Below are positions 20,725 through 50,992 of a stretch of 64,000 bases of DNA, in pieces. Numbering within the stretch: the stretch's first letter is position 1; every line of letters starts with the position of its first letter. Position numbers and translations under genes: made by a program. The notes under the pieces were generated by a model. The model worked only from the letters and a program-made list of their open reading frames with translations. It searched no databases and was not told the origin of the DNA. Origin of the DNA: Moniliella sp. 'wahieum' (lineage: Eukaryota); contig RSEE01000166.1 of assembly GCA_003971905.1 (NCBI GenBank), positions 1 to 64,000 of the forward strand, given 5' to 3'.

Positions 20725-23700
20725 TTATTTGGGTGTGTGTTCTGTGCCGAGGGGGGAAAGGGTGGCGTGGGCGCCAGTGTCGGACGAGGCCGCTGGCGCT
20801 GGCGCTGGTGGGACAGAAGCAAGAATGGGGTGTTCGGGCGAACGTCGGGCATAGAAGAGGAGATAGGCTTGGTTGGTCACCACTTGCGCCGGAGGCACAG
20901 GCTTGATCCTCGAATCGTCAAAGATGAACCACCCGTCCTCCCCTGCCGAGTGACTGGGTTCGTTCGAAAGCGGATTGGACGCGCTCTGTAGCGGATCCAA
21001 GCGCGGACCCGTACGTACAATGGCAGTATAATGCCCGCCCACCGTTGAGCCACGATGACAGTCGACCGCAAAAAGGTCGTACACGTCTGCCTCGTCCTTG
21101 CACCCAATAGGCTCCGCTGGTGATGACAGACCCAAACTCTGAGACGCCGATTCCAACCGCTTGGCCAGCATGCGCGAGCCAACTCGATCTCCCAAGCCCA
21201 ATTTGTCCAACGGGAAGCGAACCAATTCGTCCCGCTTCGTGCGTGTCGCATAGGCCACGGATGGTAGGGACTGGGTAGCTGGAGCGTTTGGTGACGGTGT
21301 GCGCTGCAACGACAGAGGCTTTGTCGGGGACGAGGGCGATAGAGAAGGAGAAGAGGTGGCGGGAACGACAGACACAGTGGGAGAGCGGAAGCGTTTGAGG
21401 TGCACCACAAGCACGTCAGGAAGCTTCCATAGATCTAAAGTTTTGACAGCTCGTTGTTCCGTTGCGCACCCAGGGCAGCGCCAGGTATCCTGAGGACCCA
21501 ACTGCTCGGGTGCTGTAAACGCATCGAGACAGTCGCTCAGCGTCGCGTCGCCAGCGGGAGGAGCAGCTAAGACACCGGCACTGGGGCACGGTGCAGGTGG
21601 AGGCGCTGTCGCCGGATCTTCCCACACGGCGACCACAGCCGCGCCCGTGTAGACCACAGGCCACGCCGGAGCCAGACCCGGGAGCCGGGAGGACAGAGCG
21701 GTGAACACGTCAGGGCTACCCTTGGTCGGTGGCACGGGAGTCGTAGGCAGCGGCGAAGCCAAGGACCGAGCGACAACCACAGCCCTGGCTTAGCCTGTGT
21801 GTCTGCGCCCGAAGCCTTGACCACAGCGGCAGCAATGGCTTCGGGGTCACGGGTGACCGAAGGAGGCAAGGCTAGCAGACGAGGCAAGTCCCACTTGATG
21901 GCAGGGCCGCCAATAGGCAGTTCCCCCCCTGGTCCGGGATGAATGCGCCCTCGGACAGTGTGAGAGGCACAACAGCCCATGTCGTTGGATCGGGATCGGG
22001 CGGGCTGACGCCCAAAGCTGCCAGAGAGGACTCGTACGTTTCGAGGCTTGGCACCGTCCCGCCTGAACAAGTGGGTTGGAAGGACGGATTGGTGTCGGGA
22101 GCAATGGAGAGGTCCAGGTGGGAGGCAGCTGGAACGCATGGGCTTCCCGCAGGATGAAAAATACCATGTCGTTGGCCCGTTCGTGTGCGGAGAGCTCGGC
22201 GAGCCGTTCCCACGGTTCATACCATCTTCGCACCACATTGCCCACCACACGGGCGGCAACGATCTATACACCACTGGTCAGCGCTCATACATACACCATG
22301 ACGGGATAAGGACGAACCTGATTGGCCGGCACACCGAGCATAGACCCCAGCTGCTTGCGGACTTGAGTCATATCTGCGTCCGCCCGCGGCGTCAACTGGA
22401 CTCGGCACGGGGGTTGGTTTGGGTCGGCAGGGACAAGGGTGACGATGGGTCGGGTGTGAGGCGCTGCGGGAGCGGGAGGTTCAGGGACAGGGAGGGAGAG
22501 GTGGAGGAACGGCTCGAAGCGAGTGGCGGTAAAGCGGCAGGCGGGGCAGACCAAGGTACTGCGCAAAAGACCAGTAAAAAGGTCGGTAATCGCACTGGAA
22601 TTGCGTTGTTCGTACTCGTCCCATGCTCTCGTCGCAGCTTGAAGCAACTCGTCGTCCTTCGCCTTCTCTCGCGCCAACGCTGCTTGGGCACCAAATGGGT
22701 TTTGCCAGCCAAGACGGGGACTTTACTGGGAACGGTCGACGTCATGGTCGCAATGCCCGGATTGGAGGTCAACACTCCATTAGAGGGCGGAGGGCGCTTG
22801 AGGTCCTCAGACAGCCCATCGAGCAGGAACGCGAGAAATTCTGATGGTCAAGCATGGATAGGTCAGACTGCAGAACAGGAGAAATATACCAAGAAAACAA
22901 GGGAGAGTCGCTTACCATGGGAGTCTTGCTGCGCATAGCCACTAAACTGGGGGGCGAACTTGCTCACGGCGGCGCGAAATTCGCGGGGGATGAGACTAGG
23001 GATCCTCGTGACCCACCCCTGGCTATCAATGTCAATAGGGGGCAACTGATGTGGTCCAGAAGGCTTTCCCTTGACGCTAGAAGAGGAAGACTTGTCTGTC
23101 TTGCTAGCCGTCTCATCGTCCGAGTCGAGCATACTCTTCTTGCGCGCAGGCAAGGCCGAACGGCGTTGGTTGTGCGCATGGTACCAACCGAAGGAGGGGG
23201 TAGGCGGTTAGGAACGGGGCGAGGGAACCCGGTTGGCGGGGTTCATAGAGGCTGCATACAACGCCGACGCGGTCACGGGTGCCCGTGCCGACGAGGGTCC
23301 AGATCGTGCAGTCTTGGACGGGACTGGGGCGACAAACGTGCTGGTCGGGGTGTAGTGCCAAATCTGGTCAAGCAGGCGACAGAAGGTGTGGACCAGCTCG
23401 CCTGGCTGCCAGCGGATTGGTCGTATTGGTCTCTTTCTCGTGGGCGCCTGAGAGAAAGTATTGGGCCAGGGCGGGGGTGTGGGCGAGGCATTGGACGGCG
23501 CTTGTCATAAAACACGTGTTACCCAGGTTGCTCACGCCCACCAGGCCGGCCGGGCGAGGTGGCTTGACCGCCGACTTGGTCTTGTCCCCCTCGGTCAGGA
23601 AGGCCTTGGGAGTGGAAGATCGCGTCGGGGGATCGAACGCGTCAGTGGGGGCCGTCGTAGCTGCAGTCCACTCGCTGAAGTCGGTTACACTGGAAGCAGG

Positions 23701-25148
23701 GGAAGAGGAGCGGGCGCCCGTTCTGAAACTGAGAGCGGTACCAGGGCTCTGTTCCCGACCCCACCCGACAGATGAGATAGGCGGACTAGCTGTGTCCCGG
23801 GCCAGACGGGGGACATGAGGGCCCCTGGCAGACTCGCTCCCCCACAGGAGAAGCCACACCCATACGTGGACCCAATCCCGAACCACCCGGGGAGCCGGAG
23901 AGACTTGCAGAGGAATGGTGCTCCATCGACCCAAAGACGGGTTGAGGGTGGTGGACGGGGATGCTACTCCTCCCGTTTACACCGTTGTTGTCCTCGTGGA
24001 GACGAGAAGTGCAAAGAGGAAGGGGTGACTTTCCAGGCGAACTTGAAAGTGGCTTGGATGGTGGGTGGGACGTAGCGCATGCAGGCGTTGGAGATGCGAG
24101 TGCTTTTTCCGCTGCTGGCGACTCTGTTCCAGTCAGTGAAGCAACCGCCACAGCTGGAGTAGCATTCACAGCTGGAGCCTCAGCTTGAATAGGTGCTGGA
24201 GCCTCAGCTTGAGTAGGTGCTGGAGCTTCAGCTTGAGCAGATGCTGGAGCTTCAGTTTGAGCAGGTGCTGGAGCCTCAGCTTGAGCAGGTGCTGGAGCTT
24301 CAGTTTGAACAGGCTGGAGCTGCAGCTTGAGTTGGAGTTGGAGCAGGAGCAGGAGCAGGAGCAGAGCAGGAGCAGGAGCAGGAGCAGCGGGCTGGGTGGG
24401 CGCTGAAAATGCAGAATGGGAAGGCAAGGGTAGAGCAGAGTGCCTTGCCGATCCAGAGGAAACCGAGGCGGTGGCGGTAGGGGGGGACGTCATCTGCGAG
24501 CCTGGCTGAGGCGCATTGCGCAAGGCGAGGGGGCCGTTGTGGGACGGGGCCGATGCAAGCGGAGGGGGGCACAATGCGATGGGAAATAAGAAGGGCTCGA
24601 TCCCGGTCCAGATGAGGGAGAAGGAGGATGGAGGGGACGAATTCCATGCTGAGGGCGGGGCCAGCGGCGCGTCGTGTTCCTGGCTGAGCGCTGGCGGAGC
24701 AGGGGAGCGGGACAGGCGCGAGAAGCGGGACAGGGGGCGGGGGGGGGCGGGGGAGGCGTGGCGGGTTGGTGGGGCAGTGGGCGTACTGGACGGAGAGCGG
24801 AGGAGATCGAAGCTGCGGCCATGGCTCAGGGCGGAGGGGGGCGTGGCGGTGCCGGAGCCAAGGTGGCTGTGGTCGGAGGCGAGGGAGACACTGCTGGTGT
24901 TGGCAGGCACGTCGGAGCGCGAGTGACGGAGGTTGCGCATGCCCGGAACAGCGGCGAGCGGCTGCGGGGAGGGTGGGCGGGGGCGGGCACGGACAGGTGC
25001 ATGGACCGGCGGGGCTGGGGCTGTCGGTCGTTGCATGGCGTCGGGCAGGCAGGGGCGGCGGGGGTGGCACGACGGTGGGGGTGGACGCGAGGGAGGCGCT
25101 GTCGGTGTCGGGCTCCTTCCTGCGCCGGCGCAAAAAGTCGAGACGCAT
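20725..25148 (-). CDS. ubiquitin carboxyl-terminal hydrolase (USP/UBP family, Ubp12/USP4-15-like) with long low-complexity N-terminus
   Basis: Cys box GLVGVSNLGNTCFMTSAVQCL; FSGYAQQDSH|EFL across intron ~22843-22915; DLFTGLLRSTLVCPAC; TLSDCLDAFTAPEQL..WRCPGC; LPDVLVVHLKRF; His box YDLFAVDCHRGSTVGGHYTA; WFIFDDS; AYLLFY. Confidence 0.93.
24165..24310 (-). repeat. 24-bp coding minisatellite (QAEAPAPA/QTEAPAPA) in the USP N-terminus
   Basis: About 6 copies of gctggagc(c/t)tcag(c/t)ttgagcaggt. Confidence 0.85.
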
Positions 25149-25801: not shown

Positions 25802-26780
25802 CTACAATCCATTCGCATCATCCACCGTAACAAAGCTGCGGTCGCAGTACAGCAACGGCCGTCTCCGCTCCTCCACCGCCCCGAATCCCGTCGGGCGGCG
25901 GTCTACCCCACACACCTCGGCGATGAACAGCAGTGTACCCGGAGCGCGTGCGGCGGCGCGCACACGCGTCCGGAACGCCTCGTCCGTCCCGAGTTCACTC
26001 GCGCCCACCCGGAGGGGGAGAGGTCGACGACCCGAATGATGCGGCACGCCAGCGCGCCCATCGCATCCACCAGGAACGGCACGCCGTCTCCAGCGCCGCC
26101 GTGGGAAGGGTAGGCATGCTTGGAAAACGCAATGGCATTCGTATTGAGCGGGTGTAGGGTATCGTCCTCCATCTTGTCCGTTGGGTCCTTCTGCTCTCGC
26201 CGTCCCCCGCTGAGCACGGCGCGGTTTTGCGCGCCACATCGTACGGCGCCAGACCTGGGTGGGCATACGTCCGCGCAATGTCCGCCTGCTGCGAAGAGAG
26301 TAGGTTGACGACAAAGTGCGGTCCTGGTGCTGGTGCGCGGGAGGACGCATGGGCCAGCGCGTCATGCAACAGCGCATCGGCCAAGCGGGAGGGCACGCGC
26401 AGACTAAACGCAACCCGGGGCGGGTCGAGGCTGATGCTGCTGAATGAGGACAGGGTGGCGCCATGGACGAGGGTGCGGCCGGCTGCGCGGGCCATGGCGG
26501 CAGCGTGAGAGGGATAGGTACGTTTGGGCGCCAAGAACGCCGAAGCGCCTCCTGGCTCCCCCTCGGTGCCGGGCGGCGGCAAGAAGGCGGTGATGATGGC
26601 GACCGGTTGGGCCGAGGCAGCATGACCAGACGTAGCTGCTCCCCAATGTCCTCGGCCCATCCTCCGGGTGCGGAGGGGGCTTGGAGGCGAGCAAGCAGAG
26701 CAGCTGGAAATCGCACGCGCCGAGAGGAGCAGCGGCAGGGTGAAAGACCGCGCCTGGCGAGCAAAGGGAAGGAGGGCCAT
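25802..26780 (-). CDS. flavin reductase-like (FMN-binding split barrel) protein
   Basis: AQPVAIIT, HGATLSSFSSISLDPPRVAFSL, FVVNLLSSQQADIA, GVPFL..A.GALAC, LFIAEV, PLLYCDRSF. Confidence 0.85.
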
Positions 26781-27155
26781 CGAAACGTAGCAAAGACGGG
26801 GCTGGGCCGCAGATGGAGATGGCGGATGGCGGCGCAGGAGGTGGTGGGGTGGTGGTGGTGTCTTCCCGCGGATATTGGCCCAGGTCTCGTGCTAGCAATC
26901 GCTGCGCAGCGGGGTGCTTGCAGTGACGCCAGTCACGTGCACGCCATTCCGCATCGCTGCAGTATGAATGTTGAAATTGCAGGCCGGCGCGGGGCGGAGA
27001 GACACTGGCGCCGAGCGGGCCAGGAGGAATGGGCGGCGCGTCTTCTTCGCGTCGGGCGAGGGGAGGCGGGGAGCACGCTCCAGGTGCGCGTCGCCAGCCG
27101 CTGCGCCACCGCCACCACCGCCGCCACCACACACCTCCGCCTCCTCTACCTCCCC

Positions 27156-30977: not shown

Positions 30978-31940
30978 ATGGTTGCTGCCACCAACGACAC
31001 CAAGCCCGCGCCCAAGAAAGCCGCCGGCCCCAGCTACGAGGTACGCCCCCCGCCGCCACGTCAGCCCAAGCCCCCGTGCCCAGTCGCCGCCCCCACCCCC
31101 CTTGCCCTCGCTGGCGCGCCTCGTCGCGCTGCTAGCGGCGCCATAGACTCTCCTTCCCCCCGCACAGCACCGCTCGATCGGCACCGCGTGCCGCTGTGTC
31201 GGTGACACGCGCCTGAGCGCGTCTGCCAGCCCGCGCGGCCGGCCGACGCAGCCGCGGGCAGGGCGCAGGCATGGCGCGAGCGTAAACCGGCGAGCGATCG
31301 CCTGAGCCAACACGGCCCAACGGCTGTGCCTCGAGCTCGGGCGCGTCAATGTGGCCGCTGGCTTGGGCTGGACGGGCGCTTTGCGCTCCCCATGTCCACT
31401 TGGACGGTTTACTGACCCTCTCCCCACCTCCCTCTGCCGCCATGTGCTTATCGCTCCTCTAATCGTGCTCGTTGAAATTGGGTTGGTACGCCGGCGCGAC
31501 GTGTAGGACATGATCAAGGCTGCGATCCTTGCGCATCCCGAGGAAAGTCGTTCGGGCCTGTCGCGTCCTGCGCTCAAGAAATGGATCCATGCGCAGTACG
31601 CCCACACTGCCTCGCTCTCCGAGGCAGCCTTTTCGGCGCATGTGGCGCGCGCCATCGCAGGTGGCGAAGCCAAGAAGGTGTTTGTGCTGCCCAAAGGTCC
31701 TTCGGGCAAGGTCAAGCTTGCGCCGGGCGCCAACCCAAGGCCAAGAAGACCAAGAAGCCTGCGGAGACCAAGGATGCTCCTGCCAAGAAAGCTACGGTCA
31801 AGAAGGCCGATTCGGGCAAGAAGCCGTCTGCCAAGAAGGCTACGACCAAAAAGACGGCCACTAAGAAGGCGGCATCGAAAGCCAAGACGGAGCCCAAGAA
31901 GTCTGCGCCGAAGAAGGCGTCGAGCGCGAGCAAGAAGTAG
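30978..31940 (+). CDS. HHO1: linker histone H1
   Basis: MVAATNDTKPAPKKAAGPSYE|DMIKAAI..GLSRPALKKWI...VLPKGPSGKVKLA, then a K/A/P/T-rich tail. Intron 31041-31506. Confidence 0.95.
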
Positions 31941-32399
31941 ACTTATGCCTTGCACCTCGTTAGGCTGCAGCCGCGTTTCGCCTGCTCTATTGCTGTTTTC
32001 CCCGCCCGGTCCCGTCCGTTCTTGCCGTGCCCCCATGTATCTCCATCTCCCCGCTTTCCTGACGGCTTCTTTTCCTCCTTCTCGAATCTCCCCCGCCGCT
32101 CCGCTCGCGCTCCTACTCTAGACTAGGCCACACGTTGCCTGGTGGGTCGAACGACCTTGGGCGGCGTATGCATGCGCCATCCTTTCTGGCGTGCGGCATA
32201 TGTTTTCTTTCCTGCGGCCCTGTATTCGAACTGGTTTCCTTGTACCCGCGATAGACGAACGCTATCTCCTCTCCTCTCGCTGTAGCTCTAGTGCCTACAC
32301 CCATCTAGACTGCCTTCAGATTCAAACCAGAGCAGAGCAAAGCAGAGCAGAGCACTTCCAATCTTTTTTTTCACCAGGGCAGAGCCTTTGTACCAAGCG

Positions 32400-33209
32400 T
32401 CACTTCTTCGAGCCGCGCTTCTTGCTCTGTTTGCCCGACTTGGGTGCCGTCGAGCTGGACTTGGCAACCGATGGAGCCGAGGCAGGACGCTGGGCATCGG
32501 CCAACGTCGCACGAGCCTCTTGCACTTGCTGCTCCAACGCCGCCTCGTTCTCCTTGGACTGGGAGCGGGTCGCATAGTACTGTCCACCCTGCAGCAGCAG
32601 CACGCCCACCAGCGCCGCGGCAATCGTCACATTGGCCGAGGCAAGGTCTTGCAGCTGCTGGGTAAGCGTCACCCCCGACGCTTCCGTCGCGGCCGCAGGA
32701 AAGGGCGGCAGGGCTCGCAAGATGGGGATCACATTGAACAGGGTGATGATGCCCACTGCACTGAGCAAAACTACGATCCACCGTCCCAAGCAAGGTCAGC
32801 TGGCACGATAGGAACAACAGACAGACAGCGGCGGGCTGTCGGCTGCGGGGTGAACAGCCTCACGGGGGAAACAGGGCCAGCACGTACACAGCGTGGCGCC
32901 ATCAAACAGCCAATTGTCTTCGCCGCCAGCAAAGACCTTGAGGCCCGCACCGCTGGCGCCAATCAGGCCAGCCAAAGCAATGCCGCGCTGGGCCCAGGCG
33001 TGCACGTCGCCTGCGCCGCCGGTGGGCAGCGTGTCGCGCGGGAAGTGTGGGCATAGTACGCGTGGGCAGCGGCGAGGTGCTCGGCGGTCAGCGGCCGTTG
33101 CCACAGCACCAGGTGGTCTGCGGTCCAGTGCACCGCCAGCGTGCCCAGAAGGAACGCAGCCGAGATGAGCACCACGGCTCCGCCCACCGAGTTGATGATG
33201 GTGCGTCAT
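32400..33209 (-). CDS. SHR3: Shr3-like ER membrane chaperone of amino acid permeases
   Basis: AFLLGTLAVHWTADHLVLW, ENWLFDGATL-like (EDNWLFDGATL), LASANVTIAAALVGVLLLQGGQYYA, basic C-terminal tail. One intron. Confidence 0.85.
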
Positions 33210-33499: not shown

Positions 33500-36400
33500 C
33501 TATGGCACCTGCAGCCGCAGCACCACCACCCCGCCGTCGGCGCCGGCCGACACAAGCTCGCACCCACCGGCCGGAACGCCAGTGCACTCACTGCCGCCGC
33601 GTGCAGCTGCATCTGCACCACCACGCGCGCCTCCTCGCCGGCATAGACCACCACCGCGCCATTGTCCATGCCGACGGCGAGGAGGGTGGTGCCGCGGGCG
33701 CGGGTGCTGGCGACCGCGCTCCCGGGCGCCTCCAACGCGAGTGTCCGGCTGGCCTGGCCCGCCGTGCCGGTCCACACCTTGGCCGTTTGTCCCGCCCGAC
33801 AGTGACAAAGTCCTGGTCCGACAGCCACGCGGCGTCGCGGATGGCCTTGTGTGTGCGCGCTCCTGCTTGGCCAGCGGCAAGACGTCGGCCAGGGGAGGGT
33901 GGGAGTCTGTGCGCGTCGGTGCGGGCGCGCGGTGGAGGAGCCACATGCGATCGCGTCCGACGCGGAGCAGTTGGTTGGATGGGTTCCATCGGATGCGCGC
34001 TGCGCCCAACGCGTGGCCGACCAGCTGGGCCGCAGGGCCCAGTGGGCCCGCCGGTCATGCAGCCAGATCTGGGCGCCTTGGGAAGAATGGGTGGAAGCAC
34101 TGGACGCACAGTAGTCGCCGCCATACGCGACGGCCAGCAACGGGTCGCCATGGCCATACAACTTGTCCGTCTCGAGCCAGAGAGTCGCAGTCAGTGCCGC
34201 CTCACTTGGCACGCCGGTCGCGCGGCCTACCGAGACCGAAGAAGCTTTGGTCGACAGGGCCAAGGGGGCCGAACTGGCGCCTTCGGCGCGCTGTTCCACC
34301 GGACGCCATACCAGGCGCGCAAGGCCGTCGACCCAATCTTGCTCGCGGCCAGCTCGGCGGGGTCGGAACCCACCACAGTTTCTCCCGTTGAACCGAGCAC
34401 GTTGATCGTCCACGTGTCCAACCCGGCCAACCCGTTCTGGCGGCGCGTCTCGGCAATCGTTCTCCGCCCGCTTTGGTTTCTTCGGTGAGCACCAGAGCTT
34501 GCAAGTCCGCCTCGCTCCCGGCTGGTCCGCATACGTCCGACAGCGGCACTATGTCCAGTTGCACCTCCCCCCAGGGTGCACGGAACAAGGCGAGAAAGTC
34601 GCGTACATCCCCGATCCGCTCCGAGAGGGACTTGAGTTGGTCCGCATGTTTTTCTTGCTGAGCAACGCGTCGGCTGGTCCAGACAGTCAGTTTCGTGGCC
34701 ATCCAAAGAAGAAAAATAAAAAGAAGATACATACTCGTCACGCCTACCACCACGCGTTGGTGGGCCAGCAGAGCAGCCATGCTCAGCAGCACTTTGTGGC
34801 CCACATGCAAGTGGTCAAACGTGCCACCCAAGGCGACCGAGTTGTACGATGGAAAGCTTGCCGTGCTCTTCTCCATCGGTTCGGGGGCAGCAAGGGGAGG
34901 CAGACGAGTGGCCGTTGGCAGGGGAACTTGATCGAGAAGGAGCGGACTTTGACCCGAAACAAACAGATTCGCGCCCTGGAAATGGGGGTGGGACAGAAGA
35001 GGCCTGAGAGGACGCTGGGACGGGACGAGGAGCACATCGATCTGCATATCCAGACGATCGTGTTTCACCGCTTCGGCCCAAACTTGGGCATAAACGCCCG
35101 CGACAAACGTCTCGACCGCAGTAAATGACAACTGAGCAAGCGAGTCCCACAAGGGCGAGACGACAAGAACAGTAAGCGAAGCCGAGGGGAGAAAGGTCCA
35201 TAGGAAGAGTGAGGTCCAAATCGGCCATAGACGCCAACAGGGTGTCCTTTAGGATATGGGGGTTGGGTACAGCTTCGCCTCCCATCTCCACCACTAGCGC
35301 TGCCTTTCTCTCGGCGCGAGGAACAAGCGACTGAGCCAGCTCAACAAAGCCCTGCGGTGCCTCGAACGCCCGCACCACCTTTTCTTCAGCGCCGCTGACA
35401 AAGGCGAGTCCTGACGGGTCGTAGAAGGAGACGCCCGTCATGGCGTATCCATGGACCTGAGGCCGCGCCAGCTGAACCCACTCGTCATCCTGCACCACGG
35501 CATGAAGGCGCGTCGTGCGGTCGTGGCCAACGGTGAGGAACCATTGTCCGTGCGATGCCCAGGCAAGGTCGCGAACGGCGTCCTGATGGCCGCCCACGCG
35601 AGCTGCGGCGGCGGCCCAGCGCTCGCCTTGGCGAACGAACAGGTGAGCAGCTCCATTCCACGCATGGGTAAGGATCTGCGCTTCCTTCCCTGGCAGGCCT
35701 GGGAGCCAGGCAGCGCGTACCAGCCTCCGGTAGCCACCCCGCCCACCTCGCCCAGTCGGGCCGAGGAGAGCCAGAGTTGTTGCTCGCCGCGCGCGACCGT
35801 GGTCGGAGCCCAGACGATCGCACTGCCGTCCACGCCGGCGGAGAGGAGGCGTGTTCCGGCCCCTGGGTCGAGGGGAACGCCCATCGCACATCTTGCACCC
35901 ACCCCTCATGCCCCAGCAACAGTGCATCAAAGCGCACGGTCACCACTGTGGCTTGCGGCAGCCCCGATAGGGGAAACGGGTGTGCCTTGGTGGTCATGCC
36001 TCGCTCATCGGCGCGGTCCTGCTCGATCCGCTGGGCAAGCGATTCGAACGCGTCGGTCTCCTTGTGGTCTCGTCCAGGGGGCGCGAAGAGAGGGTGATCT
36101 TCCAAAGACGAATGCAGGCATCCTGCGAAGCTGTAGCCAACATCAACTCGTTCTTGTCCGTGTTGTCGGACGACGGAATGGTGCAAAAGTCCAAGGCGCG
36201 GACCCAGTCGTCGTGGCCCTCGAGCGTAGCAACGCGCTGAAACGTGTCGTGCCCAGCACCGACCCCGTGCTGCTGAGCATAGAGGTAAATGTTCTTGGTC
36301 GTGGTTCCGACCGCCAACAGTAGTCGGTTGGTGCCGGGAATCGGAGCGAGGCCAAGCGCAAGCGGCAGCGCTTGGGGCGGCAAGGTGAGGAGCTGCGTGT

Positions 36401-36946
36401 GCTCCACCTGCACCAGCGGGGCAGCAGCGAGGGTGGTAATGGCAATCGTCCCCTCCGACCCGGCTGTGACAACGACCGAGTCAACGCCCAACGCAGACGA
36501 GGTAGCCGTCAGCGACCCGATCGCCGCGACGGAGCCGTGGTGGCGGTGGGGCAGGGTCAAGGCGGGGGTCCAGGCGAGGCGGGCGTGCGGGCTGAGAAGC
36601 AGGCCGGCAGGCGGGGTTGCCGGGCGGCGCTGGGGACAAAGAGATGGGTGGCGCCGTGCGCGTCGCCGACGGCCAGCGCATACGCATGGCCCTGGTCGCC
36701 GTGGGCCAGGAGGCGGATGGCGGTCACCTCGGCCGGGGCGGGCTGGACGAGGAGGGAGGCGATGCGGACGCCCGTCGGGCCAGGCCGCTCGGAGGTTAGG
36801 ACGAGTGGGACGAGGCGGCGACGAGCACGGGGAGCGTTCCGTCTGCGTCTCCACCGCGGCATCCCGTGGATGCTGACGACAGCCGAGTCGACGACGCGCG
36901 CGGCGCGGGCGATGCCGGCCGAGGCATACAGCAGCGAGGCGGCCAT
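33500..36946 (-). CDS. ELP2: Elongator subunit Elp2 (WD40) containing an internal phosphopantetheine adenylyltransferase module
   Basis: Elp2 motifs in order: [80 protein letters not shown] [insert] [25 protein letters not shown], then further WD repeats to LVSAGADG. Confidence 0.9.
34311..35310 (-). CDS. CAB4: phosphopantetheine adenylyltransferase (Cab4-like, HxGH nucleotidyltransferase) domain nested in ELP2
   Basis: [27 protein letters not shown]|intron 34674-34734, [48 protein letters not shown]. Upstream FVAGVYAQ...QIDVLL is typical of the fungal Cab4 N-terminus. Confidence 0.85.
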
Positions 36947-37294
36947 CGCGGGCGATGGATGGAGGGCCGCTGTGGTTATAGCAGGCATATAGCAGGCATG
37001 GCCCCAGCTCCCTCGCAGAAAAAGAGGCTGCCCGCTGACGTCAGCCGCCCGCCACGTGACCCCGCGGTGCCTCGCAGCGGACTAGGGCGACGTGGCGAGG
37101 CGGAATTGAGGCGCTGCGCGTCTTCCAACCAACACCCCTGCCGCACGGCGCCAGTGTCGCGCGCTGGGATGTGGCGCTGGACGGGGCCAGCTGGGCCACC
37201 GGGCTGGCCCCCACCTGGCTGGCGTGCCGCCGCCACCCGCTCTTCCCCCCCCACCATCCCCATCCCATCCCCACCCCATCCCACGCCCCTTCCC

Positions 37295-37818
37295 ATGTCC
37301 GACGCCGAGTTCAAAGAGGCCTTTGCCCTGTTCGACAAGCGCGGCACCGGCCAGATCCCCTCGTCGGTGCTGGGCGACCTGCTGCGTGCGCTGGGCCAGA
37401 ACCCGACCCAGGCCGAGGTTGCCGAGCTGGTCGCCGCTATCCCGCCGCCCGGCGAGATTGACTATGCCACCTTTGTCTCCATCCTGCAGCGGCCCAACGG
37501 CTTCAAGCCGGCCGGCACGCCCGACGAGTTCATCCGTGGCTTCCAGGTGTTTGACAAGGAGGGCAACGGGTTCATTGGCGCTGGGGAGCTGCGCTACGTG
37601 CTCACTTCGCTGGGAGAAAAGTTGAGCGACGAAGAGGTGGACGAGCTGCTGAAAGGAGTGCCTGTGTCTGCGTACGTTGACCCTCTTGCGCTGTATTTTT
37701 GTCTCTCTGGTTCGCGCTGCTGGTGCGCCTCGCCTTGGCCGCTGCTAACCCCGCCCCGGCTCTCAGCGATGGCAACATCAACTACGAGCAGTTTGTCCGC
37801 CAAATTCTGGCCCAGTGA
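37295..37818 (+). CDS. cdc4: myosin light chain (Cdc4/Mlc1, EF-hand)
   Basis: [19 protein letters not shown]...[13 protein letters not shown]...[43 protein letters not shown]. Intron 37672-37766, then [16 protein letters not shown]. Confidence 0.96.
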
Positions 37819-38331
37819 CGCAGGCTTGTGATTGACCCTGGCCCACTTCCATCTTGTTACGTCCGTCTGTCTATGAACACACCCCATTCTCCCTCGCGCG
37901 CTTGGGAGGGAAGCCAGATGCATCGTAGCCGTGGGCCTAACGCACAGGGGCGATGGCAGTAGCAAGGATGGACGCCCTGGGCTGCGTGCTGTCGTGGGCT
38001 CTGGCCGGGGGCGCTTGGATACCGACGCAGTGTGAGAAGAGCAGGCTAGGGAGTAGTGGCCAGGCGTCAGCGCTGAGCCGAGGCTCGCGGCGAGCAGGTG
38101 GGGCAGGGAAGGCAGCCAGGCAGATCCAATACCCAGCAAGCACTAGGGTTGGCCCCCACCGGCTGCAATCTGAAATGTTGCAGGGCAGCTTAAGCGAAGC
38201 GTCCACGTGGCCACGTCCGAGCGGCGGCGCGAGCGGCCACGTGGAAGAAGAAGCCGTCGCTCGCCCGCCGCTCGCAGCGTCGCTGGCCACCACCATCTCT
38301 CTTCCCCTTCCCTCCCTCCCCCCTGCTCCCC

Positions 38332-39789
38332 ATGGTTGCGATCCGCCGTGTTTGGGGCGGCGTGTTTGCCACGCTACTTGCCCTGGCCAGCGCCGTGGTC
38401 GCGACGCCGGCTGGTACGCCCTCGCCCTCCCTCGGCCACCGGCACGCGCACCCTCGTCGTCCTTCCCGACGGCCAGACGCCCGACGCGTACGGCGTGCTG
38501 GCCAACCACCTGACCGCCAAGGGGTACCACCTCTCCTTCCGCACCGCATCTGGCAAGCCGCTCGATAAGGGCGTTGTAGCCGCAGACGTGACGCTGGACC
38601 GCTGGGGCAGCAACCAATTTGACCACCTGCTGCAGCTGGCGCCTACGCTCGGCTCGTCCCCCGCTCCGGACCTGGCGCCGCAACGGCTTGTGTCCTTCCT
38701 CAAGCGCGGGGCAACGCAGTGCTAGCGTACGATGCGACTTCGCCAGACGCCTACCGCGACCTGGCGCACGAGTTCCACGTCAGCTTCGCGCCGCGTGGCG
38801 AGGCGGTGGTGGACCATTTCCGCGCGCTCCCCACGGGGGGCATTTTGGTCGGCGGAGAGTCGGAGGCTGGCCTGGCGCCCGGTGGGTGGTGGCCAACCCC
38901 ATTATCTTTTCCCGCTCGACGATCGAGACGCTGGCTAAGCAGCCGATCGTGTACGACGGCGTGGCGCACACCCTGGGCGACTTGCCGCTTGGCTTCCCGC
39001 TTCTCGTCGCGCCCGGCACGGCGTACAGCGCAGCCGAGGGCGGGGAGGTGGTGGGGTGCGGACGCGGTGCTCGTCTCGGCGTTCCAGCTGCAGGACACGT
39101 CGTCCCGTGTGATCTTCCTTGGTTCGACAGAGATGGTGAAGGATAGCGCGTTGACGGCTGGTGCGGATGGCGAGGCGGTGCAGGCGCGGTCGGGCCCGGC
39201 GTATGCGCACAGCGGCAACCTCGCCTTTTTGTCGGACGCACTGGCGTGGGGCATGCAGGAACGTGGGGTGGTGCGTGTGGTGGGCACGGCGCACCACCGT
39301 GTGCATGCGCCCGAGGACGAGCGGCCGAGCTACGAGGAAGACGAGGATGGGAACGCCATGTACCGCGTCAAGGACACGTCGAGTACAGCATCGACCTCCA
39401 AGCCTACTCTCCCACCGAGGGCTGGCACGCTGCGCCGACCGACCTCGGGGTGCAGGTATCGCTGGTGATGTTGGATCCGTATGAGGTGGTGGAGCTGGAG
39501 GCGGCCGTGGACGGGGCCAAGACGCGCTACCACGCGCACGTTCAGCTGCCCGACCGGCACGGCGTGTTTACCTTTGTGGTGGACTGGAAGCGGTTTGGCT
39601 ACTCGTTTGTCACGGCCAAGGACACGGCGCCCGTGCGGCCGTTCAACTCGGACGAGCATCCGCGCTGGCTCAGCGCCGCGTACCCCTATGCCGCCGGCGC
39701 TCTCAGCACCCTCGCTGGCTTCACTGCCTTTGCCGCGCTCTGGCTCTTTACGCCGTACGACGAAGCGGCCCAAGGCCAAGCTGGCGTAA
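38332..39789 (+). CDS. WBP1: oligosaccharyltransferase subunit Wbp1/OST48
   Basis: Signal peptide; LVSAFQ...SRVIFLGS; MYRVKD; MLDPY; LPDRHGVFTFVVDWKRFGYS; VRPF..DE.PR.LSAAYPY; C-terminal TM and KAKLA ER-retrieval-like end. Confidence 0.93.
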
Positions 39790-40999
39790 GCCTGCCCAAG
39801 CCCCTCATTGCAGCAGCCCGCTTGCCCCCGAAAACAAACGCAGTGACTCCCATTGACGTGAATAGTGAATAGGTGTGTGTGCACAATAGCGGTAGCATAC
39901 GTCTCACGATCCTGCCCGTCTCGACCGGTGGGTAACATTTCCTTGCAACTGAGGGGGCCTTGTCGGGGCGGGGTCGGCAGGTTGTACGTGTACAGGCGGT
40001 GATCAGGCCTCAGGACAGGCTAGGGCGGTGGGAATGCGATATTACCCCCGTCCGGCGCCGGCCGGAACCGGGGAGAAGAGAGGATGGGAGCAACGCATTC
40101 ACTTTTTCACCATTCACCATTCACTATTTGCCATTCACCATTCATTCAGCTGAAAGCGGGGTCCAACGTTCAACGTCAACACGTTCACCTGTCCAGGAGA
40201 CGCATGGTCTGGTTGCGAGGCACATGTACGCACCACTCCTATCGCCCCCACACCGCATCCCACGCAGCCACCCAGCGGCTCTGCTCCCATTCTCCCATGG
40301 CTGGCTGCTGCTTGGCTTGTTTGCAGTCAGATGCATGATGCATGATCGATAATCGATGATCGATGATCAGCCATCGCCCCTCCCCCCCTTCCCACCACAA
40401 ACACTAAAACGGGGCACGAGGCAGACTCAAGGAAAACACAGGGACTGGCCCTAAGGCCTAAGGCCGTAGCCCAAGGCCGAAGGCGTGGGGAAACGTGTGT
40501 ACGTAGAGTCGGTCGTATTCATCTCGGTCATGCACGTCGCCGTCGCCGTGAGACACACCAGGGGCCTAAACAGGGGACCAAAGAGACCAAGGACATCAAG
40601 GACATCAAGGAGACCAGAGCGGCCAGGGAGGCAGACCAGAGGACCAAGCGGGCCATGCACCGAAACCCAAAAGAGGACAAAGACGAAATAAAGTAAGAGG
40701 GGTACAGTACACAAAAGGCGGTGCAGGAAACGTGAGGAACCGGCGGGCGGGGTACGGGGGGGGCAGAAATGGGGAGGGGGGGGTGGGAGGGGCGGGACGT
40801 GTTCGGGATGGTCGTAACGATGGTTTGAAACGGGGGCGGTTCGGATGGCAGGGAATGCTGCATCGGAACGGTGCGCAGGTCGGAATGGTGGGAGAACGGC
40901 GGACAGAAACGCGCGAAATGAAGGAGGGGGGGAAAAATAGGGAGCGGACAGGAGAGGCAGGAGCAGGAAGGAGAGGTGGGGGGGGGGGGGGGATCAGGT

Positions 41000-47297: not shown

Positions 47298-48131
47298 CTA
47301 GTAACCGAGTACTTCATCGAGTACCACGTATCCCATTCGCTGCTGCCCTGCTATTACGAACTGACTACTGACTGCTTTCTTCCCCACTCGCCGCCGCCGG
47401 CTGCGCTTCTTCGACCGGCTTCTCCTCGGATGACGATGACTCCGCGTCCGCGGGCTCCCGCTCCGCCTGCGCTGGCAGCGCGGGCATCGTCCACACGCCC
47501 AGCACGTGCTGGCCCACGAACACCAGCACAATGCACAGCAAGCCCGACAGCCACTTGACCATCACCACGGCTGCCGGCAGCCCCGGCAGCAGCGCGCCTG
47601 GCATGACTTGAGGCGTGTAAAAGTCCTCCTGTTGGCGGATGTAGAACCGGCCGTCGACTTTGGTCAGAGCAGCAGCACCACGATCCTATCCGGCCCAGAT
47701 CCCATCCCATGTCCTCGCACGTCAGCATCCTGCTCACAGCCCCCCCTTTGGAAGATAGGGTGCGACCGCACGCATTCAATCCGAGGCACTACTACGTACC
47801 GAGCCCAAGGCGAATGGATCATGCGGATGAGAGAGGGGGGGACGAGATGCTGCCTGGCGTCGACGTAGAGGACCTGGTGCGCTTGATCATAGGCTACGCT
47901 CTTGACATGAATGATGCCGGGCCCTGAGACAAACATGATCTTGAGCCACTGGTAGATGCGGAGGATGGTGGCGTCGCGGCTGGACTCGCGGGAAAACGCA
48001 GTGCAGAGGGGGTGGTCAAAGCTGGCATTGGGCAGAAAGTAGGTTCGCATCGTGGCGGCCTGGTCGGCGGCACAAGGAGCTTCGATCAGCCCCTTGATCA
48101 CGGTCTCAATCTCTTTGGTGGGGTCTTGCAT
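47298..48131 (-). CDS. NTF2-like (SigF-like) domain fungal protein
   Basis: MQDPTKEI..VI..L...YFLPNASFDHPLC....SRD.IL.IYQW...VAYD....LYVD..Q, and QQEDFY downstream. Confidence 0.7.
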
Positions 48132-49425
48132 CCTAGGAGGGTGCGTGCGTGGTGCGGGCAGGTGGTAGGGGTGGAGAAAAGAGGGGGATGGGCGCCGACG
48201 CAAGCCGAGGGTGGATGGGTGGATGCGAAGCGTTGTTTGTCGTGCAAGCGCCTTCGGCTGGGGAGATGCTGGCCAGCGCCCCACCAACCGGCCCCGATCG
48301 CCGTGTCTGCGGGGCAGCCGAGCGAGGATGATGTCATCGGCTGTCTGCGCTTGTACAGGACACACTTGCCCATCCTTGGGCGTCGACGGGATAAGCGAAG
48401 TACCCCCCGACGCGTGGCATCGTCCTACCCCCACACCGCTCGTCCATCAACGCTTGTAGCGTAACCCCCGCTTTCGTCGGCATTCCTTTGGTTGTAGTGC
48501 TCGCCTCATCCGGCGATGGATGTGGCCACTGCATATATGGCGACACCATTAGAATGGGGACGTTGCCGAAGCGAGTCAGGGACATTTTTGTCCAGAGAGG
48601 AACGCGAGGGGGTACGTGAGCTGATGGTTCGACGGGGCCACTGTGCATGGCCTGGCAAAATGAAGAGGTGCATACCAAAACAAAAAAGGCTATTCAGAGG
48701 GCATCAGTCGAAATGAATGCTTTTGCAACACCAACGACTCAATGATCATCTGCATCATCGAGCCAGAGGTGATCGCCCCCGGCACAACTGTCCCGATCCC
48801 TCAGATGGATCGATGAGGGGCGACGAGCCAGGATGAGGGTGTACGTTCTACTGTGCGTTCAAGCATATGAGACTTCTCCGAGCGAAGGAGACAACCCCTT
48901 TAGGGACGATATGGCCTATCCAAATCGTTCCAACCATCTCACAGTCGAATCATACTATACGTGAGGCTACATACATCGTTTACAGCACTACCTCCGATCG
49001 GCACCACGAGCTGCATAACCAAAATTATGCATGGCATAGAGCTGGCGCTGACATGCCAGCGCAGCATTATGAGAGTGGTGAAGGTAGAGTAGTGATACAG
49101 AGTTTTGTACACACGCCAGGGCGGGTTTTGGCTTTTTTTTGGTGTTGGGGGTCGTCCCGAGTACCCCACCGCCTGAACGTCTGTAGGGACAGGCAGGCAG
49201 AAAGGTTGAGAAGGACGGGGCGTGGGGGCCAGCGAAGCGCCAGGCAGGCAAGGTGCGGGGAATATGAAGGCAGCACAGGGTAGGGCAGGGCCAGAGCGCC
49301 CCCGGCTCCAGGGCAAAGGGTGAGAGGGCAACAACAGCAGAGGCAGTGGTACGGAGAGAGGGCAGGTGACATGTCACTGGGACATTTGACGCTGGGCCTG
49401 CGCTTTGTGGTCTGCACCTTGGGCT

Positions 49426-50992
49426 TCACTTGGTACGACGGCGGCGTTTGCTGGGTCGAGGGTTGCAGCTATCCAAGGGAGTGGGTGTGAGTTCCATTTC
49501 GTCCGGTTCCAACGTCGCTGCATCGTCCAACGACGCGTACCCCTTTTCGTCAGGCCCACTCGTCAGGCCTGGCGAGTCCAACAAACTCGCACCATTCAAC
49601 AACAGCATGGTAGGTTCCACTCCCGATTCGACCGACAACTTGTCCTCCCACTCGTCCCCAGACGACAGGGGCGACAAACTGCTGGTTTCTTCTTCCTCGG
49701 TTTCCCACGAAGGGAAGAGCGCCGCGGCCTTTTCCGACATGCAGCGCCACGTCGCAACGCAATCTTCCAATTCCGTCACGGCGCCCCAGGGCGAGTGGTG
49801 GGTGGCGGCCAGCACTTGCATCACATGGGCCATCGCGCGCGCTTGCACGTGGCCCATCTGTTCCATGTGCCGCTTGAGCGTGCCCAGTTGAGCCTGCAGC
49901 ATGGTCATCTCCGATTTGAGCTGGTCCACCTCCGACGACGGGTCGACGGCGGTAGCAGTGCTGGAGGCGGTGGAGCTGACGGAACTGGAGGAGAGGCGCT
50001 TGGTGAGCGTCCGCTCGCCCGTTCGAGGCCAGTAGGACGAGGCAAAGCTGGTCACGAGCGGTGCCGAGATGGGAGCAGCGATCGACTCGCTTCCTGCCGT
50101 CGATTGAGTGCGAGCGAGGGGTTGAGACGCACGTTTTGCGACGTGATCTGCGACGAACCTTGTTGGCTGTGCGCGCCCACCGAGGAAAAGAGGGAGGACG
50201 AAGAGGGCGATGCACTGGACAACTGAGCCAGTTGAAGGTCCATCGGACTCAGACTTGCCCCCGTACCCACCGCTGTGGTTGCGTCTGCGCCAGTGCCAGT
50301 GGGGCGGGGGGACGAGGTCGAGGTAGAGGTGGGAACCGAGCTGGTCGCCCCGGCATTGGCAGCCGTGGCTTGTTTGACCAAGTTGGCCACCTTGGCCGCG
50401 TCGGCTTCGGTGGGCTTGGGCGTCTTGGGGGTCCGGCGCTTGATCTCCTCCATGGCGGCCGGTGCTTGGCGGAGAAAGAGCGGGTGCTTGAAGCACCAGT
50501 CGACAGGCGAAGAAGAAGGACCGGAGGCGTGACCGTTGGAGCCAGGGTGGGCCACATCGGTCTGTTTGACAAAGCCATAAATGTTGAGTTGGCGGATGAA
50601 GGATTGCCAGTTGTTGTGCTTGAAATAGTTGGGCAGCACGTCGCGGGAAAAAGTAACCGAGTCGATGACGCGGAACGCATTGCCAGTGGTCGTCCAGTGA
50701 ATCTGGAGCACCTGCTCATTGTCGAGATGCTGCTGCGCAGCTTGCGTACAAAGGCGGGGATGCGTTTCTTGGCTGCCTCACTGAGTTCGGGTGGCAAGTC
50801 AACCGACATGGGCGCAGACGGCACTGGCGCTGGGCCCGGAGCCGGGGTGGCGGTGTTGGGCGAAGGGGAGGCCGAGGACGAAGATAAAGACGCGGGCGAG
50901 AAAGACGGAGAAGGCGAGCAGGTTAACGTCGGGGCGATGCTCAGTACGGGCCCAGGGGGCGGCGCAGCTGGCACAGAGACGGTGGTGGCCAT
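49426..50992 (-). CDS. HSF-type DNA-binding domain transcription factor
   Basis: PAFVRKL; IHW...GNAFRV.D...FSRDVLPNYFKHNNWQSFIRQLNIYGFVK; WCFKHPLFLR...IKRR; downstream coiled coil EVDQLKSEMTMLQAQL. Confidence 0.92.

Follow-up and report, generated by a model that had tools for sequence, protein, structure and literature searches.

A predicted pantetheine-phosphate adenylyltransferase module embedded in the Elongator subunit Elp2 of Ustilaginomycotina

We analyzed a 64,000-nt stretch of DNA from Moniliella sp. 'wahieum' (positions 1 to 64,000 of contig RSEE01000166.1, assembly GCA_003971905.1; hereafter the window) that contains a gene for the Elongator subunit Elp2. Inspection of the window sequence and its table of open reading frames (ORFs) revealed the motif order Elp2, pantetheine-phosphate adenylyltransferase (PPAT), Elp2 on the minus strand, in one gene extending from 36946 to 33500. 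No stop separates these modules when each is read in its appropriate frame. We consider it probable that this is a single gene encoding a bifunctional protein, in which a canonical Elp2 carries a complete fungal Cab4-type PPAT in a surface loop between short variable linkers. Pfam matches were WD40/beta-propeller families on both flanks with CTP_transf_like (PF01467) between them; four of the nine scanned ORF pieces had matches and five had none. The insert amounts to about 330 residues of PPAT and follows the N-terminal two thirds of Elp2. Coordinates of the individual parts are given in Table 1.

Comparison with relatives showed that a predicted PPAT insertion is conserved at one Elp2 site across Ustilaginomycotina, in nearly all relatives. 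When the N-terminal part of the window PPAT was used as the query, 74 proteins were matched, 13 of which were 1131-1387 aa long and carried WD40 families. Another search used the insert of a Microstroma glucosiphilum protein (P0002) against proteins of similar length. Forty-seven of its 53 matches were full-length Elp2 proteins with the insert (1042-1406 aa), five were fragments of such proteins and one was an unrelated Termitomyces fusion. The fusion was present in Ustilaginomycetes (Ustilago, Sporisorium, Pseudozyma, Kalmanozyma, Melanopsichium and Testicularia), in Exobasidiomycetes and related orders (Microstroma, Sympodiomycopsis, Jaminaea, Parajaminaea, Exobasidium, Meira, Ceraceosorus, Tilletiaria and Violaceomyces) and in Malasseziomycetes, where six Malassezia species came from the near-length search and one more from another search. 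An Acaromyces fusion was recovered by a separate search, beyond the near-length set. The motif order FxAPxxF, HxGH, GSTxIR, LGLSNR, LYGH was identical in 45 stored proteins longer than 1000 aa, and the spacing from FxAPxxF to LGLSNR was 346-428 aa in 18 fused proteins compared with 27-45 aa in five unfused fungal ones.

Uninterrupted versions of the gene were also found. Three Malassezia-like metagenome contigs (L001, L002 and L003) contained the whole gene as a single uninterrupted ORF of 1116, 1092 and 1113 codons, respectively, and the 1170-aa protein P0001 is also the product of an uninterrupted ORF. In an exhaustive profile search with a 16-row alignment and clusters at 50% identity, 12 full-length fused clusters ranked at the top. 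Two ESM Atlas clusters (78 and 59 members) contained both WD40 and CTP_transf_like in 97-100% of their members. Because the same join occurs at the same site in 47 full-length relatives, and because the metagenome ORFs are uninterrupted, we conclude from these comparisons that the insertion is not an artefact. The window gene is one more, divergent, member of this fused set, from an error-prone assembly.

The window DNA was aligned to the closest relative, a Tilletiaria anomala protein (P0185), by dynamic programming in which skips of one or two bases had equal cost and introns were allowed. Besides two skips that flank an intron, this alignment contained 15 frame events, corresponding to a net 13 breaks in 3.4 kb. 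Frames taken from the ORF table and from tblastn tiling indicated that all 13 net breaks shift the frame one way, as for one missing base. Several of the breaks lie inside contiguous conserved blocks, for example near 35715 and 35855; introns were rejected as their cause since these blocks have no space for one. No in-frame stops were found within the homologous segments of the window gene. The neighboring gene for the OST48/WBP1 oligosaccharyltransferase subunit is spread over three reading frames, with OST48_N positions 1-78, OST48_N positions 189-245 and OST48_MD in different ORFs. The frame of this gene changes within 338 nt that must encode 110 profile positions, leaving no intron space between its first two pieces, and the split looks like a further one-base assembly error. 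As the breaks in the Elp2-PPAT gene are all one-directional, fall in conserved blocks, are unaccompanied by in-frame stops and are matched by those of the neighboring OST48 gene, they are probably deletion-type sequencing errors and not decay.

At junction 1, Elp2 and PPAT are in a single frame as assembled, and this frame stays open for about 25 codons into the PPAT N terminus until a break near 35248. At junction 2 a single break is required, which falls between 34310 and 34288. By this point the Elp2 frame is open, and Elp2 sequence takes up again from 34296 onward, with a motif at 34281-34243. A 21-nt GT..AG segment at junction 2 was considered as an intron and rejected as too short. The PPAT part itself contains one spliceosomal intron. 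Plain ORFs from other organisms (P0006 and P0012) break off a few residues after GLT/GVT, at the site of this intron, so that its position is common to other organisms. These results bear on the initial annotation of the gene, in which the Elp2, PPAT, Elp2 motif order was borne out on the minus strand by translation and Pfam, and in which the junction coordinates of 35310 and 34311 were right to within a few bases. It had also described an open frame continuing for about 1 kb into the Cab4-like part without an intron, and both statements must be revised, given the break near 35248 and the 61-nt intron. The frameshifts that it noted near the junctions and took for indel noise do fit the one-directional breaks; junction 1 itself turned out to be in frame, leaving junction 2 with one required break.

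We also compared the insert with free enzymes. When fused proteins were aligned with free-standing fungal PPATs, the first residues of the latter fell at the insert start (AALVVEM in the window), and their last residues, 6-10 after IRxWL, coincided with the insert end. The Met at the start column of the Tilletia standalone PPATs was absent from all 23 fused rows, and none of the 23 rows had a stop after IRxWL. Because the two ends match those of standalone PPATs and the fused rows have neither this Met nor a stop, the predicted insert comprises an entire PPAT coding sequence except for its start and stop, set into Elp2 between two linkers. In the relatives, linker 1 is 13-29 aa long with 24% identity, and linker 2 is 20-68 aa long and always open, with 22% identity.

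Mean pairwise identities were calculated by region for 44 aligned fused proteins. The value for the PPAT catalytic domain was 0.59, so that the catalytic core is better conserved than either the N-terminal (0.44) or the C-terminal (0.49) part of Elp2; the PPAT N-terminal domain gave 0.26. Thirty-six insert columns were invariant in these proteins, including GGTFDH-H-GHK and K-GST-IR. The window retains 33 of these 36 positions, as well as 42 of the 45 invariant positions in the Elp2 N part. HxGH and KIGSTALR, the latter of which we take to be the equivalent of ISSTxIR, are both present in the window at positions that are invariant in the 44 fused proteins, except that the window has L in place of I. 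Judged from this alignment, the conservation pattern of the insert is that of an enzyme under purifying selection.

The NCBIfam family NF001985 (pantetheine-phosphate adenylyltransferase) was the top family for a standalone PPAT of Tilletia controversa (P0081), for the fused protein of Malassezia pachydermatis (P0207) and for the window piece, in each case at a score below the cut-off of the family, with other families far lower. The only PDB sequence match of the catalytic domain was an archaeal PPAT (3do8). A structure model of P0081 with a predicted local distance difference test score (pLDDT) of 85.3 was compared with solved structures by Foldseek. The best fold match was again 3do8, with a target template modelling score (TMt) of 0.79 and 31-33% identity, followed by many bacterial CoaD structures. 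Residues 1-140 of this model, which form the non-catalytic domain, were predicted to be a second alpha/beta Rossmann-like domain, and whole-length matches of the model included the tandem proteins UspE (5cb0) and human ECT (3elb). These matches hint that the N-terminal domain of fungal PPAT may be a degenerate duplicate of the catalytic domain.

The host protein was identified by comparison with solved Elp2 structures. Two stretches of P0002, one on each side of the insert, matched the Elp2 chains 8avg_B, 8ptx_B, 5m2n_A and 4xfv_A at E values of 1e-85 to 1e-93, and the window aligned to fused relatives over these same Elp2 parts. By alignment, the flanks of the insert correspond to residues 477 and 494 of mouse Elp2 and to residues 473 and 488, approximately, of the human protein. 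The yeast position was counted along an alignment of the unfused Tilletia Elp2 to 5m2n_A; with FDLPKGV at 466-472 and LGLSNKA at 499-505, the insertion site is at about 480-490. From this sequence position and the general topology of WD40 proteins, the insert is expected to separate strands C (DEKVxRVF) and D (LYGHGYE) within a single blade of the second propeller. When P0207 was modelled in full, the double seven-bladed propeller was kept (pLDDT 83.1; predicted template modelling score, pTM, 0.81). The top ten Foldseek matches of this model were all Elp2 chains (TMt 0.70-0.77), those of human and yeast Elongator being the best (TMt 0.71-0.77). The insert folded at high confidence in the model, with low-confidence stretches at 780-789 and 829-847 flanking it. 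According to Dauden et al. 2019 (PMC6620098), the Elp2 loops aa242-254 and aa484-532 become visible, at the Elp1/Elp3 interface, only when the Elp123 lobe is assembled, and according to Abbassi et al. 2024 (PMC11096365), ELP3 is clamped from opposite sides by ELP1 and ELP2. Going by the loop boundaries in the former study, PPAT would thus hang from the beginning of a loop that contacts the catalytic core.

The only named standalone PPATs from the subphylum among 120 shorter matches to the insert were five Tilletia entries of 344-364 aa, with PF01467 as their sole family; the other short matches with WD40 families represented pieces of the fused gene. Ustilago, Malassezia, Microstroma and the other fused genera contributed no standalone PPAT to these 120 matches, which cover gene models within the best 8000 candidates of a word-indexed search. 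As none turned up, the embedded PPAT is probably the only PPAT of the fused fungi, and only Tilletia appears to keep Elp2 and PPAT as separate genes. The Tilletia PPATs fell into one clade with the embedded PPATs in a quick tree (Shimodaira-Hasegawa-like approximate likelihood ratio test, SH-aLRT, 100), where Tilletia took part in an unresolved fork inside the clade. In a tree of Elp2 only, Tilletia branched after Malassezia (SH-aLRT 91). A single clade of all fused rows was not rejected by the approximately unbiased test (p 0.263), and a concatenated tree had a polytomy at its base. Microbotryum was left out of the trees because its motif was not found by the pattern, and Ceraceosorus and the window were also left out of the concatenated set. 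The window grouped with Tilletiaria anomala in the Elp2 tree (SH-aLRT 100, 44% identity) on a long branch, the length of which is probably due in part to assembly errors. We infer that the fusion arose once, early in Ustilaginomycotina, by a whole PPAT gene landing in the Elp2 loop, and that Tilletia either branched off before the fusion or re-separated both genes. In the usual taxonomy, Tilletiales sit inside Exobasidiomycetes; if that placement holds, one gain and one later separation would be the simplest history.

Fused proteins are already present in public databases under the names 'Elongator complex protein 2', 'related to ELP2' and 'Cytidyltransferase-like domain protein'. A full-text literature search, with most subscription journals outside its coverage, did not find a description of an Elp2-PPAT fusion. 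Thus, the architecture seems never to have been described in the literature, though the sequences are public. Two Tilletia horrida proteins (P0080 and P0086; 358 and 364 aa) are standalone PPATs with PF01467 only, yet both are named 'Elongator subunit elp2'; this misleading name was apparently carried over from fused orthologues. We also noted an 834-aa fragment (P0224) attributed to the fern Adiantum nelumboides that has the fungal Elp2-PPAT architecture and resembles the Exobasidium and Meira proteins. It probably reflects fungal contamination of the fern assembly.

The central proposal of the initial annotation, that a whole PPAT was inserted in a variable loop of Elp2, is strongly supported by the 47 full-length relatives and the three uninterrupted metagenome ORFs. 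It also stated that yeast and animals have Elp2 and PPAT as separate proteins, which fits the solved Elp2 chains, where only a short loop occupies the site. It had further suggested scanning Elp2 orthologues for WD40 plus CTP_transf_like, modelling the structure and looking for a standalone CAB4. Both families were found together in the fused relatives from Ustilaginomycotina and in the ESM Atlas clusters, and the P0207 model combined an intact Elp2 double propeller with a confidently folded insert. As for CAB4, Tilletia has a separate gene, and no other named species of the subphylum contributed one to the 120 shorter matches.

Several observations weigh against a single gene for a working bifunctional protein and are considered here together with other explanations. 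Junction 2 is out of frame as assembled, with the PPAT frame continuing to a stop at 34229-34227, and an unbroken frame across this junction in the window organism is presumed. The linkers are unconserved, and the result on a second PPAT extends as far as the gene models and candidates given above. In Tilletia maclaganii, Elp2 (P0221, V8E36_003269; 932 aa) is without the insert and has 31 residues between the two motifs, and PPAT (P0082, V8E36_007183) has a distant locus-tag number and lies on a contig that differs in length. As the two genes are separate in Tilletia, the fusion is not obligatory. The separate Tilletia genes and the unconserved linkers would suit a PPAT gene that is nested in Elp2 or separately expressed, through its own promoter, alternative splicing or processing, so that ordinary Elp2 and PPAT are produced and the long ORF is a by-product of annotation. 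The insert is indeed complete from about the second PPAT residue to a few residues short of the usual C terminus, as if a whole gene had landed, and Tilletia demonstrates that both genes work apart. Nevertheless, we consider a nested gene quite unlikely. It would need no openness at the junctions, yet 47 diverged proteins and three ORFs of 1092-1116 codons without introns read through both of them in frame. The 23 fused rows have no conserved Met at the insert start and no stop after IRxWL, and the Malassezia-like ORFs show no trace of the splice sites that would be needed to excise about 1 kb as an intron.

Other doubts concern the state of the gene and its product. The scores for NF001985 (85 bits for P0081, 85 bits for P0207 and 36 bits for the window piece) all fall short of the curated cut-off (104 bits), a threshold chosen for archaeal proteins, and at position 699 of P0207, which is E in all 44 fused proteins, the window has K. 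Such values could be taken to mean that the module is catalytically dead and has a regulatory role in Elongator by binding nucleotide or CoA, with PPAT activity supplied by another, unrecognised enzyme. We find this very unlikely, in that the subphylum shows no variation at HxGH, GSTxIR and at least 30 other positions, no other part of the protein is as conserved as the core, the standalone Tilletia PPATs belong to the same clade and have the same motifs, and the 120 shorter insert matches contain no other PPAT candidate from a fused species. The window also differs at 8 of 38 otherwise invariant positions in the Elp2 C part, for example LALSTKA for LGLSNRA. If the net 13 breaks in 3.4 kb were real, this divergence and the long tree branch would be consistent with a decaying pseudogene in this organism, working copies of Elp2 and PPAT being elsewhere in the genome. 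Decay is highly improbable when every break is of the one-base-missing type, the homologous segments are free of in-frame stops, nearly all of the invariant PPAT and Elp2 N-part positions are kept, and breaks of the same type occur in the neighboring OST48 gene. Finally, misplacement of a PPAT locus inside Elp2 by the assembler, which the initial annotation had named as a possible refutation, might be suspected in an error-prone assembly; its probability is negligible, since the same join is found at the same residue in dozens of independent genomes and metagenomes. We therefore favor one gene for a bifunctional Elp2-PPAT protein.

Like canonical Elp2 (yeast 5M2N/4XFV; human and mouse ELP2, 8PTX/8AVG), the fused protein has two WD40 propellers and the motifs ARPQxHGY, DEKxxRxF, PxLGLSNKA and TLWPExxKLYGHGYE, and the model of a fused relative superposes on the canonical chains at TMt 0.71-0.77. 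The difference lies in the FxxPxxF-LGLSN loop, which is short in the measured unfused fungal Elp2 proteins and holds a whole enzyme in the fused ones. The insert in turn shares its two-domain layout, its motifs and colinearity from first to last residue with standalone fungal Cab4-type PPATs (P0081 and Mycena P0015), whereas the latter exist as free proteins (311-364 aa), each starting at a Met and ending at a stop of its own. Animal COASY (PPAT plus dephospho-CoA kinase) also joins a PPAT domain of the same family to another protein, and Anopheles and Caenorhabditis entries were matched by the window PPAT piece at E values of 1e-5 to 1e-6. However, the COASY fusion is end to end and its partner is the next enzyme in the pathway, whereas in fused Elp2 the PPAT is internal and its host is a scaffold protein that belongs to a different pathway. 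For the catalytic domain of the insert, no family scores better and no solved structure matches better than archaeal PPAT (NF001985; 3DO8 from Archaeoglobus fulgidus), although the latter has just one domain, of about 150 aa, and neither the fungal N-terminal domain nor a host protein.

Table 1. Parts of the Elp2-PPAT gene and other features of the window
Feature	Position	Strand	Remarks	Basis
Whole gene, Elp2 with embedded PPAT	33500..36946	-	Product about 1130 aa conceptually, frame breaks read through	Frameshift- and intron-aware alignment to Tilletiaria anomala P0185; tblastn frame tiling with relatives >600 aa
Start codon ATG	36944..36946	-	Residue 1 of P0185 in alignment	Sequence
Elp2 N-terminal part, first WD40 propeller and beginning of second	35325..36943	-	About 5 assembly frame breaks	Pfam WD40; tblastn to fused relatives; translation
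Linker 1, VPRAERK	35304..35324	-	One frame with preceding Elp2 and following PPAT start	Translation
PPAT N-terminal non-catalytic domain, from AALVVEM	34841..35303	-	Frame breaks near 35248 and 35204	Alignment of fused and standalone PPATs
PPAT catalytic nucleotidyltransferase domain	34311..34840	-	Intron inside; frame breaks near 34646 and 34458	Pfam PF01467; NCBIfam NF001985
HxGH nucleotide-binding motif	34793..34828	-	Positions invariant in 44/44 aligned fused proteins	Sequence
Spliceosomal intron in PPAT part	34674..34734	-	61 nt, GTATGT...CTGAC...CAG, directly after GVT	Sequence; dynamic programming alignment
KIGSTALR, second nucleotidyltransferase signature	34317..34340	-	All 44 fused proteins have K, G, S, T and R; L in window where those have I	
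Junction 2 / linker 2	34282..34310	-	Very short in window; holds the one break needed to pass from PPAT frame to Elp2 frame	
Elp2 C-terminal part, remaining WD40 blades	33503..34281	-	4 assembly frame breaks	Pfam beta-propeller families; alignment; translation
Stop codon	33500..33502	-		ORF table; alignment
OST48/WBP1 oligosaccharyltransferase subunit	38174-39869	+	Three reading frames	
EF-hand protein	36947-37250 and 37235-37830	+		Pfam EF-hand_6/7/1
SHR3-type ER (endoplasmic reticulum) chaperone domain	32403-32795	-	Directly downstream of Elp2-PPAT stop, same strand	PF08229
Linker histone H1	31507-32118	+		
HSF-type DNA-binding protein	50055-50777	-		
SigF-like NTF2 domain protein	47667-48446	-		
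Ubiquitin C-terminal hydrolase	20728-23976	-	Long insert between UCH domain ends	
Flavin-reductase-like protein	25998-26891	-		

Of the neighboring genes listed in Table 1, the one for an EF-hand protein lies on the opposite strand, and its start is upstream of that of Elp2-PPAT by about 300 bp. As the two genes are divergent and this close, a short promoter region is common to both. The last exon of the EF-hand gene seems to come after an intron near 37650-37690.

If the fused gene is translated as a single protein, the propellers would do the usual job of Elp2, holding Elp3 against Elp1 in support of cm5U34 formation, as described in PMC6620098 and PMC11096365, and the protein would still assemble into Elongator. 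The inserted module, on its flexible linkers, would convert 4'-phosphopantetheine and ATP to dephospho-CoA, step 4 of coenzyme A (CoA) synthesis; catalysis of this reaction by the insert is supported by its conservation pattern. The arrangement raises the question of a link between CoA metabolism and translation. The PPAT module may sense CoA or dephospho-CoA, or may bring CoA-synthesising enzymes to Elongator, such that, throughout a fungal subphylum, Elp3 would adjust its acetyl-CoA-dependent modification of wobble uridines to the supply of CoA, or PPAT activity would follow Elongator assembly. The initial annotation had proposed that the insertion tethers CoA synthesis to Elongator and possibly couples CoA status to tRNA modification. 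Such coupling is a reasonable hypothesis because Elp3 consumes acetyl-CoA, because the insertion site adjoins a loop that contacts Elp3 and because the fusion has been kept for a very long time. The position of the insert at the start of loop aa484-532 is the only new support that the analysis adds to this proposal. Since the product of PPAT is dephospho-CoA and not acetyl-CoA, direct channelling is unlikely, and the fact that Tilletia manages without the fusion also counts against coupling. That the insertion is a working link of this kind is therefore a tentative idea that we regard as doubtful.

In fungi that include relatives of the model plant pathogen Ustilago maydis and the human skin yeasts Malassezia, ELP2 appears to be the only gene to encode an essential step of CoA synthesis. 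Knock-outs of ELP2 in the fused fungi would be expected to be lethal or to resemble CoA auxotrophs, unlike those of yeast, and thus to go beyond mere defects in tRNA modification. Metabolic reconstructions that look for a CAB4 gene in these fungi would wrongly report a gap. The fusion is also a clean natural case of a whole enzyme placed in a WD40 loop and retained for a very long time, with Tilletia as a possible natural reversal, and it offers a testable handle on the long-discussed Elongator link between acetyl-CoA metabolism and translation.

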